41,350 nt of DNA from a virus (Duplodnaviria; Heunggongvirae; Uroviricota; Caudoviricetes): IMG/VR virus record IMGVR_UViG_3300045988_014834, positions 1-41,350 of that record; one strand, written 5' to 3'. Each line of letters starts with the position of its first letter. The first letter of the stretch is position 1. This document shows, one piece after another, positions 557 to 21,102 of the stretch. The translations under genes were made by a program, and so were the position numbers. The notes under the pieces are model-generated. The model worked only from the letters and a program-made list of their open reading frames with translations, made no database searches and had not been told where the DNA came from.

Positions 557-664
557 TCTTTAATCCTTTGGTTAAGAGGTTACAGGTTAAGGGTAAATGC
601 GCCAGACGGGAACCACCCGCTTTTCGTGTGCGACACTAGGCGCAAACTTATTCTAGCACACTAC

Positions 665-693
665 TTGCACACCCCAATATAATAGGGTACTAT
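665..693 (+). promoter_or_regulatory. Early promoter: -35 TTGCAC, 17-nt spacer, -10 TACTAT
   Basis: Sequence TTGCACACCCCAATATAATAGGGTACTATTCAC, nearly identical copies at 8523 and (reverse) 20188-20216. Confidence 0.6.
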
Positions 694-953: not shown

Positions 954-2084
954 ATGGCCCAGAAGAAAATAACCGACGAACAGTTACAGGAAGAATTGAA
1001 CGCCGGGATGAAGAATATCGACATTGCCCGTAAATACGGCATCTCCGACCGCGTTATTCGTATTCGCAAAGCGAAGCTGGCTAAGAAAGGCGTAGGCCAC
1101 GGGCGTGACGTTAGCCATCTCGTGCCGGACGGCTACAAGATTAAAGGAACGTCATCCCTGGTGGACGAGTTCGGCAACACTAAGCTGCAATGGGTTAAGA
1201 CCGACACCGATGCGGAACGTCAGGTCGAGTTAATGAAGGCCGTAATCGAGGGCATGAAGTCAGAGATTACCCCTGTTGCGCCTGTTAAAGCGACTCGAGC
1301 CAAACGCGACGACAAGCTACTCAATCTTTACACTGTATCTGATTTCCATCTCGGTATGCTGGCATGGGCCGACGAGAGCGGCGACGACTGGGATATGAAG
1401 ATTGCAGAAGACCTGTTCTCCCGCTGGTTCGATGCCGCGTTTCAGAAAGCACCGGATGCTGGAACAGGGGTTATTAACCTGCTGGGCGACCTTGCACACT
1501 TTGATAGTCTGGATGCCGTTACCCCGGCGAGTGGTCATGTTCTTGACGCCGACACCCGTTACCAGAAACTTGTCCGCTACATGATTCGCATGGTCCGCCG
1601 TGTTGTAGATATGGCGCTCGTTAAGCATAAAAATGTTCGCTTGCTTATTGTGCAAGGGAACCACGACGAGAGTGGCATGATTTGGTTAGCTGAGATGTTC
1701 AGTACGCTGTACGACAATGAGCCTCGTGTGTTCGTCGATACGTCGCCGGATGTTTACAAGATGGTGCAACACGGCAAAACGACGTTGTTCTTTACACACG
1801 GGCATAAATGCCGGTTTGAGGTGGTCGAACCCATTATGATAGCTAAGTTCAGAAAAGCATTTGGCGAAAGCGAGTACAGTTATGCACATGTTGGGCATCT
1901 CCACCACCAAAAGATCGTAGAAAGCAGGAATATGGTAGTGGAGCAGCATCGCACTCTCGCGGCGAAAGATGCATATGCTTCTCGCGGCGGGTGGATGTCG
2001 GGCCGTAGTGCAAACGTAATTACTTATAGCGCCGAATATGGCGAGGTCGCACGTTTAACTATTTCACCGGAGATGCTGGGATGA
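954..2084 (+). CDS. HTH domain fused to a calcineurin-like metallophosphoesterase, 376 aa
   Basis: N-terminal HTH-like segment (NIDIARKYGISDRVIRIRKAK); ordered phosphoesterase motifs DFHLG, GDLAHFD, GNHDE, HGH, GHLHH. Confidence 0.6.
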   Translation: MAQKKITDEQLQEELNAGMKNIDIARKYGISDRVIRIRKAKLAKKGVGHGRDVSHLVPDGYKIKGTSSLVDEFGNTKLQWVKTDTDAERQVELMKAVIEGMKSEITPVAPVKATRAKRDDKLLNLYTVSDFHLGMLAWADESGDDWDMKIAEDLFSRWFDAAFQKAPDAGTGVINLLGDLAHFDSLDAVTPASGHVLDADTRYQKLVRYMIRMVRRVVDMALVKHKNVRLLIVQGNHDESGMIWLAEMFSTLYDNEPRVFVDTSPDVYKMVQHGKTTLFFTHGHKCRFEVVEPIMIAKFRKAFGESEYSYAHVGHLHHQKIVESRNMVVEQHRTLAAKDAYASRGGWMSGRSANVITYSAEYGEVARLTISPEMLG

Positions 2085-5802: not shown

Positions 5803-5993
5803 GAATTATTCCTCTGATTTCGCCCGACGCTGGCGGCGCGGTGTCTCTTCTTTAGTCGATTCTACCACGGCACCTTCTGGTGCGAAACGAGCATCTACTA
5901 CACGGAACCCCCGACGGTTATATTCTCGCTTCTGCTCGATGGTAATCGGCATTGGTACGTATTTAATTTCCACTTTAATTTCTCCTAGTAAAA

Positions 5994-6015
5994 AGGGGCC
6001 GTAGCCCCTTTGTTT
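5994..6015. terminator. Hairpin terminator/attenuator just downstream of the major capsid gene
   Basis: AGGGGC-CGTA-GCCCCT with T-runs on both sides. Confidence 0.5.
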
Positions 6016-6030
6016 TTACCACTAACTGTA

Positions 6031-6999
6031 TCACTTGTCCGCGTCGGCGATTGCCAGAGTACCGAGGGTGTGTTTGTTCTCGGCAACAGCTTTGTCCCAG
6101 TTGGTCGCGGTGAACAGTTCTGCGTCCAGCGGAGATTTACCGCCGTTGGCGACATCCCAGCTATAGCCTTTCAGTTTCAGGCCGAAGCTGTAATCCGCCT
6201 GCCAGGTGGTCTGGATGCGGGTGTTACCGTTGCTGGTATCAATGTTGCTGATAATGTCAGAAGCATTATCAACGATGATGCCGTTTGCAACTACTGACAG
6301 GACCTTAGTCTTGTTCGGAGTACCAGCTTCGTACAGCGCAGGGATGTCGGAGATCACATAACGCTTACCGAGAACATCGACAACCATAACGTTACCAGCA
6401 ACGAACAGCTGGTTTGCGTTAGTCAGCGCTTTATCTACCAGCGTGTGATAAGCAGCACCAGTCATGATGTCGGTAATCAGCAGCTGAGACTGGTCGCCGA
6501 ATTTAGCGTGGCTGTTGTTCAGCACGTTCAGGGACAGACCCACGGTTGCAGATACGTCGTTAACCAGCGCGGCCTGACCAGATACCGCCGCAACAGCTGC
6601 GCCAACAGCAGTGTTGAGCTGGTCCGCTAACAGTGCGTCAGAGAAGCCTTCGGAAATAGCACGAATCGCGCTCGCCGGGTCTTCGTTAAGCCAGGTCATT
6701 TGCGCAGGCTCGAACAGTACCGGTCCGAAGCCGCCAGCGACTTTAACGCCTACATGCTCGCCCTGAGTCAGCGCGGTAGCTGCCTGAGACGCGATAGCGG
6801 CGTAACGGTCAACGCGGCGTTTAGCGGAGGCAATCTGGTTAAAGAAAGACTCACGTGAGAAGTCACCGCGCCATGAAGCGGTAGACAGTACAATTGCACC
6901 ACCGGAGGCTGCGTTAAACTGGTCAGTTTTCTGGCCAAGCAGTTCGATAGTGGTACCGACGATGTCGTCGTTATAAACCTTCATATCTGACAGAGACAT
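6031..6999 (-). CDS. Major capsid protein, 322 aa
   Basis: Follows the scaffold gene; size and composition typical of an HK97-fold capsid protein; attenuator hairpin downstream. Confidence 0.65.
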   Translation of the reverse strand: MSLSDMKVYNDDIVGTTIELLGQKTDQFNAASGGAIVLSTASWRGDFSRESFFNQIASAKRRVDRYAAIASQAATALTQGEHVGVKVAGGFGPVLFEPAQMTWLNEDPASAIRAISEGFSDALLADQLNTAVGAAVAAVSGQAALVNDVSATVGLSLNVLNNSHAKFGDQSQLLITDIMTGAAYHTLVDKALTNANQLFVAGNVMVVDVLGKRYVISDIPALYEAGTPNKTKVLSVVANGIIVDNASDIISNIDTSNGNTRIQTTWQADYSFGLKLKGYSWDVANGGKSPLDAELFTATNWDKAVAENKHTLGTLAIADADK

Positions 7000-7975: not shown

Positions 7976-8207
7976 GGGTAATCACCTCTGATTTCGTCTT
8001 GCCTTCGTTGTCAGCGGCTGCGGCCTTTGATTCATCCTGCTGCTGCCGTTGTGTTTTCTTCGCTAACTCAGCCTGGGCTTTCTGCTGTTGCTGCGAAACG
8101 AGATTCGCCCGGCCTTCGCTCCAGCCGCTGCGGTACTGATAGATGCCGTGTGCGTAAGCCAGGATGATGAAACATGCTCCTGCTACGACAGTTGCTTTAA
8201 GATTCAT
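7821..8207 (-). CDS. i-spanin (Rz-like), 128 aa
   Basis: N-terminal transmembrane helix then charged Gln/Lys-rich region; embeds the lipoprotein ORF. Confidence 0.5.
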   Translation of the reverse strand: MNLKATVVAGACFIILAYAHGIYQYRSGWSEGRANLVSQQQQKAQAELAKKTQRQQQDESKAAAADNEGKTKSEVITREVVKYIKTPGRSVCTFDPERVQLKSRAVANANSISGYDDDAAAVQTGDAK

Positions 8208-8306
8208 GTTTCCCCTTTCTCGATAAGTAAAGCCCCGCCTTAAAGCGGGGCGCTAGTCCTTATCATTTAAACATAGAAACGGCGTAATCTCAGTAAACCA
8301 GTTACT

Positions 8307-8460
8307 TTTTACACAAGCAATAGAGTATGGCCCTTCCGAACGCGTCAGCGTAACTACACTCAGGACTTACGTCCCGCTCCGTTACCTGCCCGCGCCGCGG
8401 TCGCTTGTTCACACTTCACAAGCTCAGGAGGAGCTTAGCACACTTTTAGTGAAAAGTCAA
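8307..8460. repeat. Conserved ~150-bp noncoding element, copy A (second copy 20382-20525)
   Basis: About 75 percent identity to copy B with compensatory changes in a hairpin (GGAC-TTAC-GTCC here, GTGCC-TAAT-GGCAC in B). Confidence 0.6.
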
Positions 8461-8522
8461 CTATTCGAATAGTTTATTCCAACATTTACAATTTAGTGGA
8501 ATAACTGGAATACATAAATAGT

Positions 8523-8551
8523 TTGCACACCCCGATATAATAGGGTACTAT
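8523..8551 (+). promoter_or_regulatory. Early promoter copy (TTGCAC N17 TACTAT) driving the methyltransferase
   Basis: TTGCACACCCCGATATAATAGGGTACTATTCAG. Confidence 0.6.
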
Positions 8552-10857: not shown

Positions 10858-10893
10858 ACTATAAGAAAGCCCCTTTCGGGGCTATATGTGAAC

Positions 10894-18575: not shown

Positions 18576-18595
18576 GAAAAATGATACGCTGCTGT
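18576..18595 (-). terminator. Hairpin ACGCTGCT-GTGT-AGCAGCGT followed by a T-rich run on the minus strand
   Basis: Read from sequence. Confidence 0.45.
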
Positions 18596-18638
18596 GTAGC
18601 AGCGTAAGTCACTCAGTAAAATCTTAAACTATTGAACA

Positions 18639-19934: not shown

Positions 19935-20153
19935 TTATTTAAAGTAGATAGCGAATTTCTTGTAACCCGCAGGCTCGTTACGAAGCCCTTTACCGTTAGC
20001 GAAACGTTGTACGTTGATAAAATCATTTTCATCCATTCCGTCGGTGTCGAACGTACAGAAGTTGCGTTTGTTCCCAATAATTACGCGCTCTGAGGTATCG
20101 ATGCCGTAAACTTCTTTGATTGCGGAAACTACGCTTGCAGTCGCTTTGTTCAT
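19935..20153 (-). CDS. First early-left gene, hypothetical, 72 aa
   Basis: AGGAAT upstream; about 30 nt downstream of the early promoter. Confidence 0.4.
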   Translation of the reverse strand: MNKATASVVSAIKEVYGIDTSERVIIGNKRNFCTFDTDGMDENDFINVQRFANGKGLRNEPAGYKKFAIYFK

Positions 20154-20187
20154 TTCTGAATTCCTTATGTCTCGTTCCGATAAGTGA

Positions 20188-20216
20188 ATAGTATACTATT
20201 ATGTTGGGGTGTGCAA
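20188..20216 (-). promoter_or_regulatory. Early promoter copy (TTGCAC N17 TACTAT) for the leftward early operon
   Basis: Minus strand TTGCACACCCCAACATAATAGTATACTATTCAC. Confidence 0.6.
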
Positions 20217-20381
20217 GAGATTAGTTACGTTGCCGTTGTGATTCTTTCGTTTCTTAAAAGAGTACGCAACGCAGTGGGTGGGCGTTAGCCCACCCCAGCG
20301 GAGTGAAGTACTCTCTACATTGCTTACGGCAACTATAGAAACTTTTAATTATCAGTGACTTGGGTATTTAGGCGGGATTAA

Positions 20382-20525
20382 CAATAGACTTTGGCCCTTC
20401 CGAAAGCGCCAGCGGAACTACACTCAAGTGCCTAATGGCACGCGTTGCGTTCCCTGCCGCTCCGCGGTCGCTTGCGATATCTCACAAGCTCAGTGAAGCT
20501 TAGCATATTTTTAAGTAAAAGTCAA
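20382..20525. repeat. Conserved ~150-bp noncoding element, copy B
   Basis: Aligns with 8307-8460 including covarying hairpins. Confidence 0.6.
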
Positions 20526-20572
20526 TACCAGTAGCATCTTTTGTATCTTAGTAACTTTGTGCGGTGTTTTGG

Positions 20573-20601
20573 TTGCTTTTACATTCCCGCTATCCTATAC
20601 T
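20573..20601 (+). promoter_or_regulatory. Rightward early promoter candidate (TTGCTT, 17 nt, TATACT)
   Basis: Read from sequence, upstream of the HTH gene at 20633. Confidence 0.45.
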
Positions 20602-20632
20602 CGGTTTCACCAAACCAACAGGAGATGTAAAA

Positions 20633-20815
20633 ATGCAGCATTACATGACACAGAATGAAGTAGCTGAACGTATCGGGGTGACCCGTCAGACAATTAATAA
20701 CTGGTTGCGCAGTGGTAAATTCCCGGATTGTTGTATTAAGGTTATGGGCCGCCGTTTACCAGGAACATTTGATCGTAATAAAGTTGAAGCGTGGATTAAG
20801 GAGAACGTGAAATGA
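20633..20815 (+). CDS. Small HTH DNA-binding protein (AlpA/Xis-like), 60 aa
   Basis: GGAG then ATG; HTH-like segment MTQNEVAERIGVTRQTINNWLRSGKFP. Confidence 0.5.
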   Translation: MQHYMTQNEVAERIGVTRQTINNWLRSGKFPDCCIKVMGRRLPGTFDRNKVEAWIKENVK

Positions 20816-21102
20816 AAGGTGTAATATTCCATGATAAAGAGAACGACAATTCTTATATGGTTTATTTGGTGCAAGGCGAGTATGCGTTGTGCTTTAACGT
20901 TTCTTGTAAACTGGACTCTTATTCACCGTTTTGCGTTACAGAAGAATTGCAGTTGATTAGTCTCCGAAGACTCAGCACAATGTCGGCCTCCATCGATGTC
21001 TCTGACCACTTAGCGTACGTTTATCAGTATTTCGGCGATGAGATTGTTGTAGATTATTATCGTAAGTATGAGCATTTGATGGGATGTCTGGCTAAAAGAT
21101 AA
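20812..21102 (+). CDS. Hypothetical protein, 96 aa
   Basis: ATGA-coupled to the upstream gene. Confidence 0.35.
   Translation: MKGVIFHDKENDNSYMVYLVQGEYALCFNVSCKLDSYSPFCVTEELQLISLRRLSTMSASIDVSDHLAYVYQYFGDEIVVDYYRKYEHLMGCLAKR

Follow-up and report, generated by a model that had tools for sequence, protein, structure and literature searches.

A promoter-coupled structured RNA predicted at the head of two long operons in Kagunavirus and related phages

A noncoding element of about 150 bp occurs twice in the 41,350-bp stretch of DNA analyzed here (hereafter, the window), which raises the questions of whether it functions as RNA, as DNA or as a small gene, which of its strands is transcribed, and what it does where it lies. 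The window covers all or nearly all of the genome of one Kagunavirus, a virulent siphovirus of Escherichia coli (Guernseyvirinae), in the orientation opposite to that of most database records, and its gene content was inferred from the annotated relatives Bas70 and fKuEco01. The duplication, first noticed in a sequence-only reading, was confirmed with MAFFT and blastn: copy A (8318-8460) and copy B (20382-20525) align in the same orientation with 77.6% identity over 147 nucleotides (E = 5e-23). The copy A region matches 181 phage records at 80-99% identity, including Escherichia Kagunavirus, Salmonella Jerseyvirus, Raoultella and Shigella phages.

A small protein can be ruled out as the product. 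As originally stated, no open reading frame is common to both copies: copy A contains only a 36-aa frame with a GTG start (8302-8412, minus strand) and copy B unrelated frames of 22-29 aa, and indels of 1-4 nucleotides between the copies disrupt the reading frame. Hypothetical proteins of about 36 aa are annotated over the RNA element in several phages (Bas70_0007, KE1_005 and CPT_Snoke_056; gene calls of this kind lie at 8302-8412 on the minus strand of the window, 5282-5392 in L040 (Bas70), 4468-4578 in L041 (fKuEco01) and 433-540 in L059); because the frame is not conserved between the copies, these are very likely false gene calls.

Architecture of the duplicated element

On the minus strand, both copies begin with the promoter-like pattern TTGACT-N17-TAAGCT that had been pointed out previously; the exact pattern is present at these two sites only within the window, and both promoters also have the TG of an extended -10, giving the sigma-70 type TTGACT-N14-TGC-TAAGCT (Table 1). 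The generic promoter scan missed the pattern because TAAGCT fits TATAAT at just 3 of the 6 positions. The transcription starts, which are predictions from spacing, fall about 7 nucleotides past the -10 (G8425/A8424 in copy A and G20491/A20490 in copy B). The promoter is kept in all copies of the A, B, C, E, F and G sequence types (see below).

Table 1 Predicted features of the two copies and their surroundings, in window coordinates
Feature	Position	Strand	Details
Promoter P_A	8432..8460	-	-35 TTGACT 8455-8460; TG 8439-8440; -10 TAAGCT 8432-8437; 17-nt spacer
Palindrome	8459..8474	-	AACTATTCGAATAGTT; perfect, 16 bp; adjoins -35 of P_A; read from sequence
P1, copy A	8403..8423	-	5'-terminal hairpin GCUUGU-(9 nt)-ACAAGC
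P2, copy A	8336..8400	-	long irregular hairpin
3' tail of core, copy A	8318..8335	-	AAGGGCCAUACUCUAUUG
Rest of leader A	8252..8317	-	A/U-rich; weak similarity to copy B
Terminator-like hairpin, locus A	8223..8251	-	GCCCCGC-UUUAAG-GCGGGGC, then UUUACUUAU; stem-loop 8232-8251
Promoter P_B	20497..20525	-	TTGACT 20520-20525; extended -10 TG 20504-20505; TAAGCT 20497-20502
P1, copy B	20470..20489	-	GCUUGUGA-GAUA-UCGCAAGC
P2, copy B	20400..20467	-	same architecture as copy A, with compensatory changes
3' tail of core, copy B	20382..20399	-	AAGGGCCAAAGUCUAUUG
GC-rich hairpin, locus B	20276..20296	-	GGGGUGGGC-UAAC-GCCCACCC; downstream of copy B; kept in B and F loci
Second promoter, type 1	20188..20216	-	TTGCACACCCC..ATAATAG..TACTAT; tandem with P_B
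HTH_17 (Xis/MerR-like) DNA-binding protein	20633..20815	+	60 aa; divergent from the locus B element

Rightward promoters are indeed located near both copies, at distances of 62 bp (8523, TTGCAC-N17-TACTAT) and 47 bp (20573, TTGCTT-N17-TATACT), and belong to two different types. The former is one of three occurrences in the window of a 29-bp motif for which the chance expectation is none (TTGCACACCCC-N-A-N-ATAATAG-NN-TACTAT, matching TTGCAC-N17-TACTAT; 665-693 and 8523-8551 on the plus strand, 20188-20216 on the minus strand). Each copy of this type 1 motif directly precedes a gene block (an exonuclease block, a methyltransferase and a small-gene block), and the motif, with its conserved spacer, is probably the standard early promoter of the phage.

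The predicted minus-strand core comprises about 100 nucleotides arranged as a 5' hairpin (P1), a 2-nt GA linker, a long hairpin (P2) and an AAGGGCC..CUAUUG tail, in which AAGG and CUAUUG are conserved and the middle is the most variable part. P1 starts 2 nucleotides after the predicted transcription start in every sequence type and is closed by U-A or U-G across the variants; its stem in copy B is 8 bp long, longer than in copy A, and includes one U-G pair. P2 spans 65-68 nucleotides, with about 20-22 bp interrupted by conserved internal loops. From the bottom to the apex, P2 of copy A runs through CCG/CGG, a bulged C, GGCGCG/CGCGUU (two of whose pairs are G-U), CAG/CUG, GUAAC/GUUAC, an asymmetric internal loop with a conserved GAGUGUA, and the apical GGGAC-GUAA-GUCC(U). 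Compared to copy A, P2 of copy B shows replacement of C-G by A-U in P2b and of U-A by G-C in P2d, and has an entirely different apex, GUGCC-AUUA-GGCAC (20428-20441).

This fold replaces the two short hairpins of the sequence-only reading by P1 and the ~65-nt P2. The first of these hairpins (GGAC-TTAC-GTCC at 8363-8374 versus GTGCC-TAAT-GGCAC at 20428-20441) is real and its changes are compensatory, and it proves to be the apex of the far longer P2. The second (AAGCTC-AGGAG-GAGCTT, 8420-8436) is present in the DNA of both copies but is not an RNA hairpin of the transcript made from this promoter: one of its arms coincides with the -10 hexamer and so lies ahead of the predicted start, and the other serves in the RNA as the 5' arm of P1, where its partner is ACAAGC (8403-8408). 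The hairpin is therefore better read as a DNA palindrome. The minimum free energies of the minus-strand folds are -38.3 (A) and -47.3 (B) kcal/mol, compared to -26.7 and -36.5 kcal/mol for the plus strand, and the z-scores of the minus-strand folds are -2.3 (A) and -3.8 (B). In copy A, the minus-strand fold is both the minimum free energy and the centroid structure; in copy B, the centroid departs from it in distal P2 only.

Covariation, transcribed strand and distribution

A covariance model of the element (R1) was built, and homologues were collected by pattern scans of IMG/VR and metagenomes and from GenBank phages. Covariation was assessed in 33 distinct sequences from related phages and metagenomes, which represent about 8-10 lineages of a single phage subfamily in alignments fitted to the model. 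The conservation of the hairpin pairing across related genomes, a test set in advance, is borne out in these 33 sequences: the predicted pairs form in 98.5% of the alignment cells, versus 29-40% when the partners are slid (98.5-98.7% and 24-45% when a second, similar analysis is included). Double-sided changes are observed at four pairs (4-6 over both analyses), two of which show three Watson-Crick types: pair 40-106 is C-G (23 sequences), U-A (7) or A-U (3), and pair 51-94 is U-A, G-C or A-U; at 53-93 and 54-92, the pair is either A-U or G-C. None of 500 shuffles reached the observed covariation score or number of double-changed cells. The initial suggestion that selection acts on secondary structure is thus upheld, at the level of RNA, by the covariation across the 33 sequences.

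The same alignment indicates the strand. The paired positions include 71 G-U cells (among them two adjacent, near-invariant pairs in P2b) as against 2 A-C cells, which identifies the minus strand as the RNA strand. Together with the conserved minus-strand promoter, this asymmetry supports the earlier proposal of minus-strand transcription, whereas the proposed alternative of a plus-strand or protein-bound DNA structure is contradicted by the 71 G-U versus 2 A-C cells and by the minus-strand fold being about 11 kcal/mol more stable; a plus-strand RNA or a cruciform is ruled out by these two lines of evidence. The adjacent P2b G-U pairs (columns 38-39 with 107-108 of alignment A4; 8395-8396 with 8339-8340 in the window) give way in some variants (L075/L052, L082 and L065) to one G-C pair and a U-U mismatch, and two Watson-Crick pairs never take their place; this pattern suggests that a non-canonical site is conserved here, at which a metal or a protein possibly binds. 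Overall, the comparative data indicate that the predicted RNA structure is real, is conserved across the phage subfamily and is formed by the minus strand.

Nearly all genomes of Kagunavirus and Jerseyvirus contain copy A, and copy B or its variants are optional; many phages possess copy A only, so that the second copy appears dispensable. Further types at locus B are C and C2 (fKuEco01, L AB-2017), E (SCS44, Snoke) and F (L084, L077); the G type (L065, L082) is found at locus A. Six types (A, A5, B, C, C2 and E) share one fold despite unrelated apical stems (for example, GGGAC/GUCC, GUGCC/GGCAC, CACGU/ACGUG and GGUGC/GCAC), and the F and G types fit the model. In the D-type phages (Cornellvirus, phiEap-2 and Hafnia TS33), a diverged leader occupies locus A, upstream of the spanin gene, with the promoter layout TGGACT-N14-TGA-TAACCT, a 5' hairpin, a GUAAC/GUUAC hairpin and GCGCGGAAGGGCC; it scores just 14 bits with R1, so its homology to the element leans mainly on synteny and shared motifs. 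At the syntenic site of Klebsiella phage 37P2 and Vibrio phage 1.115.B, which were searched as capsid-protein relatives, no element was found; among the relatives reached in this way, a diverged version was confined to the D-type phages. In 37P2 (L047, Guernseyvirinae; 1572-1860, minus strand), at least five TTGCGAG motifs lie upstream of the spanin gene instead, possibly a different regulatory scheme for the same operon. The metagenome pattern matches L070, L079, L092 and L101 were discarded as unrelated high-GC bacterial DNA. No match to the element was detected among 5,426 complete E. coli genomes, which rules out host mimicry or a prophage origin. In one metagenomic contig (L061, 2382-3300), an E-type second copy lies between a Hoc-like head-decoration gene and a type 1 promoter with small genes; this layout implies a rearranged genome or a different inter-operon junction.

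The constraint on the element extends beyond base pairing. Among 43 distinct locus A sequences, the mean pairwise difference is 0.015-0.076 in the core and 0.11-0.24 in the adjacent spanin coding sequence, that is, the core is 5-10 times less variable. The leader (8170-8410) is 100% identical to that of the Salmonella Jerseyvirus dunkel, compared to 57-90% identity for the flanking genes. Most of the differences fall within the apical hairpin, the spacer of the promoter and the central part of the tail; across the subfamily, primary sequence is almost unchanged in P1, the linker, basal P2 and the tail.

Operon context of the two loci

Locus A is located past the end of the packaging and head-morphogenesis operon, and in fKuEco01, a strong terminator lies directly upstream of P_A. 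The order of features is P_A, the RNA of about 195 nucleotides, a terminator-like hairpin, and the genes for an Rz-like spanin, scaffold, major capsid, connector and tail-tube proteins. The hairpin, preceded by about 65 nucleotides of A/U-rich leader, lies 16 nucleotides upstream of the spanin start codon (8207); its U-tract is moderate, and in the G-type loci it is conserved, with changes in the loop only. Between the element and the spanin gene, no further promoter is apparent. Directly 3' of the major capsid gene, within the operon, there is a predicted strong intrinsic terminator (AAAGGGGC-UAC-GGCCCCUUUUU, 5992-6011, minus strand), so that the connector and tail-tube genes would depend on read-through. 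Further terminator-like hairpins are found within or at the ends of the two operons headed by the element (10868-10883 and 18585-18606).

The capsid gene itself (6031-6999, minus strand) is mosaic with respect to most of Kagunavirus: it is at least 99% identical in 8 phage records (including BUCT789 and fTaEco01) and 94% identical in Enterobacter phage phiEap-2, and has no tblastn match in Bas70. The upstream noncoding element, unlike the capsid gene, is common to BUCT789, fTaEco01, phiEap-2 and Bas70. A third minus-strand operon, encoding tail chaperones, the tape measure and a tail fibre, has a candidate extended -10 promoter (TGC-TAGAAT) followed by a hairpin leader of about 60 nucleotides, UGCGCCUAG..CUGGCGCA (557-665, minus strand), that is not homologous to the element.

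Upstream of P_A, the 16-bp palindrome is centered at about -41.5, given a start at G8425, and clusters with GGAATA/TATTCC half-sites (8474-8480, 8498-8504 and 8508-8513), among which the forms GGAATAA, TTATTCC and GGAATAC occur. This cluster is retained in D-type phages (L044, 3440-3500; L053; L055, 22640-22700) and also in fKuEco01 (L041, 4365-4420), where there is no divergent gene; the palindrome and the half-sites are confined to locus A, being absent at locus B. The array at 8459-8514 looks like a putative regulator site for the late promoter.

Locus B lies between a divergent HTH_17 gene and an operon of small genes, holins, endolysin, terminase and portal. The GC-rich hairpin downstream of copy B has no adjacent U-tract and so is not a canonical intrinsic terminator; the C and E loci instead have GGUGCC-UUCG-GGCACC with a U-rich tract (a weak terminator), and the downstream hairpins of the D type also lack a U-tract. 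The tandem type 1 promoter immediately precedes the gene that opens the operon (19935-20153). The HTH_17 gene adjoins the element in 7 of the 8 B-position loci examined (the exception is L061), and its product is a candidate regulator; as an AlpA-like antiterminator it was rejected, given that it matches generic HTH families only, with neither family nor PDB support. In Bas70 (L040, 36260-36540), the position of copy B is occupied by an unrelated cassette in which a promoter resembling the sigma-70 type precedes a long, perfectly paired hairpin (GUUGACGAACCCUC..GAGGGAUUCGUCAAC) and then a terminator of canonical form (GGGCAGGC-UUAA-GCCUGCCC-UUU); a type 1 promoter comes next, and locus B may be a swap site for small RNA modules. 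The minimum of the cumulative GC skew (20000-21000) coincides with locus B and with the switch from minus-strand to plus-strand genes; because it coincides with this switch in transcription direction, it is unreadable as an origin on its own.

Known systems and candidate functions

The element does not fall into a known RNA family. Rfam searches of the whole window gave no match at gathering thresholds, with chance matches far below threshold at E ≤10 at both loci, and ARAGORN found no tRNA or tmRNA in the window. No boxA (YGCUCUUWA) is present within one mismatch in either leader, the nearest sequence, CUCUAUUG, deviating from the consensus, and boxA/nut antitermination as in lambda N or rrn was rejected on these grounds. 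In comparison to transcription-terminating riboswitches, in which a terminator overlaps or adjoins the aptamer and alternates with an antiterminator, the terminator-like hairpin lies about 70-100 nucleotides past the conserved core, and no alternative pairing is evident by eye. We found no description of the element in the searchable literature; in the sole time-course RNA-seq paper on Guernseyvirinae, intergenic transcripts were not analyzed. No Q, N or AlpA homologue is annotated in Bas70 or fKuEco01, and there was none among 15 candidate proteins compared to PHROGs and Pfam; the co-occurrence screen for partner proteins, which is noisy, contrasted the window, TS33, Bas70 and fKuEco01 with a single negative genome, 37P2.

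As far as can be judged from sequence comparison, the element is a promoter-coupled, structured, strongly constrained minus-strand RNA that heads two long operons. We tentatively propose, with a probability of about 0.4, that it is a cis-acting leader RNA coupled to its promoter that modifies elongation or termination, in a put-like or factor-loading manner, and aids read-through of terminators. Under this proposal, host sigma-70 RNA polymerase would start at TTGACT-N14-TGC-TAAGCT and make the two-hairpin RNA within the first ~100 nucleotides of the transcript; the nascent RNA would then affect, in cis, the complex that is transcribing it, by acting on RNA polymerase itself, as put of HK022 does, or by serving as a loading site for a host or phage factor. 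Transcripts from the element promoters would pass the next hairpin or terminator (8232-8251 at locus A) as well as the internal terminators of the 6-11-kb operons (5992-6011, 10868-10883 and 18585-18606). At locus B, where the module lies in tandem upstream of an ordinary promoter, only the RNA-bearing transcripts would reach the distal lysis and packaging genes. A role in read-through in cis is favored because the position of the RNA is fixed at the 5' end of its transcript, because the module is duplicated as a unit ahead of terminator-containing operons, because locus A mirrors the layout pR'-6S-tR'-lysis-morphogenesis of lambda, because such unchanging sequence in P1, basal P2 and the tail suggests that a conserved machine binds there, and because no antiterminator protein is recognizable.

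The closest functional parallel is put of phage HK022, which consists of two adjacent irregular stem-loops, with putL RNA beginning essentially at the transcription start, and which mediates antitermination and anti-pausing in cis, free of protein factors and dependent on the zinc-binding domain of the RNA polymerase beta' subunit (PMC9378689). Like putL and putR, the element is present twice in a genome, in copies that have diverged with compensatory changes in their stems and are each promoter-proximal in a long operon with terminators; it too comprises two adjacent stem-loops, starts essentially at the predicted transcription start, as putL does, and is found in a phage in which no dedicated antiterminator protein is recognizable. 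Unlike put, it is about 100 rather than about 70 nucleotides long, shows no sequence or covariance-model similarity to put, and belongs to a virulent siphovirus, in which it heads lysis, structural and packaging operons rather than lambdoid early operons. In the PL-putL and PR-putR regions of HK022, the best hit of R1 with filters off was 5.5 bits (E = 3.5), outside the put sites, and blastn-short against put yielded chance 6-7-mers only; these searches rule out homology. The more specific possibility, that the RNA modifies RNA polymerase without the aid of any protein, has no sequence relationship to put and is used throughout the subfamily to drive host polymerase past terminators into the lysis, head, tail and packaging genes, we regard as unlikely.

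Several observations speak against a cis-acting leader. The hairpin after copy A has a moderate U-tract, and those after the B and D types have none, so that there is perhaps little to antiterminate immediately downstream; the downstream genes at locus B are already served by the promoter at 20188-20216; and the swapped cassette of Bas70 looks more like an exchange of interchangeable small RNA genes. The foremost alternative is that the element is a stand-alone sRNA gene, with a promoter, an RNA of about 190-230 nucleotides and a terminator. Such an RNA would act in trans, be it through pairing with mRNAs of the host or the phage, by sequestering a protein as a decoy or sponge, in anti-defence or otherwise, and the location of its gene ahead of operons would be incidental. 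We consider this doubtful. Copy A does combine a promoter, a structured RNA and a terminator-like hairpin, copy B is followed by a hairpin and then by an independent promoter, the unrelated promoter, hairpin RNA and canonical terminator of Bas70 look as if sRNA genes had been swapped at locus B, and the perfectly conserved A/U-rich 3' part of leader A resembles a seed or an Hfq-binding region. Arguably, however, many transcripts should run into the genes past the B-type and D-type hairpins without U-tracts, the spanin-head-tail operon has no other visible promoter at locus A, and the 5,426 E. coli genomes contain no match. The sequence-only reading had suggested that the copies may be minus-strand small RNA genes; the minus strand and the promoter stand, but independent genes are one option only. 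Given the co-directional operons, the lack of another promoter to the spanin gene, and the B, C and D hairpins without canonical U-tracts, a cis-acting leader is at least as likely.

A role in mRNA processing or stability, with P2 as an RNase III site or P1 guarding the operon mRNA from 5'-end-dependent decay, is distinctly unlikely in our assessment. The RNase III sites of the early mRNA of phage T7 (R0.3, R1.1 and others) are repeated, mutually similar irregular hairpins in polycistronic transcripts with conserved internal loops. The element resembles them in its repeated irregular hairpins of about 50-65 nucleotides with conserved internal loops: P2, with its ~20-22 bp, conserved loops and variable stems, occurs in more than one copy per genome, and P1 begins 2 nucleotides from the predicted 5' end. 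However, the near-invariance of P1, the linker, basal P2 and the tail exceeds the needs of a duplex-shape signal, and the element, with a further hairpin at its 5' side and a tail that is conserved, never occurs apart from its own promoter and 5' end, unlike the T7 sites that are placed between genes.

The layout of locus A also invites comparison with the late region of lambda, pR' - qut - 6S RNA - tR' - S/R/Rz - head/tail. At this locus only, a sigma-70 promoter is followed by a noncoding transcript of about 195 nucleotides, a terminator-like hairpin, a lysis gene and head and tail genes; unlike in lambda, the search for a Q homologue gave none, the module has a second, homologous copy, and the leader itself is structured and under selection, whereas we know of no requirement for a selected structure in 6S RNA. 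A late-promoter module that depends on a protein, as those of Q or AlpA do, and in which DNA sites at the promoter matter and a DNA-binding protein of the phage (for instance, the product of the divergent HTH_17 gene) loads onto paused polymerase, would account for this succession of promoter, ~195 nucleotides, terminator and lysis or structural gene, for the AAGCTC..GAGCTT DNA palindrome that spans the -10 and +1, for the palindrome at -41.5 of P_A with its GGAATA half-sites, and for the HTH_17 gene next to the second copy in 7 of 8 loci. Nevertheless, such a module appears highly improbable: a DNA site leaves unexplained the compensatory changes and G-U pairs 40-100 nucleotides past the start, the HTH protein matches neither the AlpA nor the Q families, and locus B is devoid of the upstream half-sites.

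A DNA-level element, that is, an origin primed by a structured transcript (as with ColE1 RNA II or the R-loops of T4 oriF/oriG), a cruciform or protein-bound DNA, is barely credible, even though the cumulative GC-skew minimum at 20-21 kb falls at locus B and an A/T-rich stretch follows the GC-rich structured RNA, because locus A, the near-universal copy, is off any skew extreme, the skew switch is the switch in transcription direction, and the G-U pairing and strand asymmetry favor RNA over a cruciform.

Guernseyvirinae are virulent phages of Enterobacteriaceae that are widely used in phage therapy and biocontrol. To our knowledge, put and a few others are the only known RNA antiterminators. 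The ~100-nt RNA, one of the most conserved segments of these genomes, is a concrete, testable candidate for the timing and maintenance of late transcription in virulent siphoviruses without an RNA polymerase of their own, placed where lambda and HK022 have their late and early antitermination signals. The element merits an Rfam entry, and the annotations of 36-aa hypothetical proteins should be corrected. Were it a trans-acting sRNA, it would be a universal noncoding gene of a therapeutically used group of phages. If it acts on RNA polymerase, it would represent a new class of RNA antiterminators and a compact part for terminator-proof transcription units; if that action is independent of proteins, it would be a second, independently evolved put-type system, the first outside the lambdoid phages.
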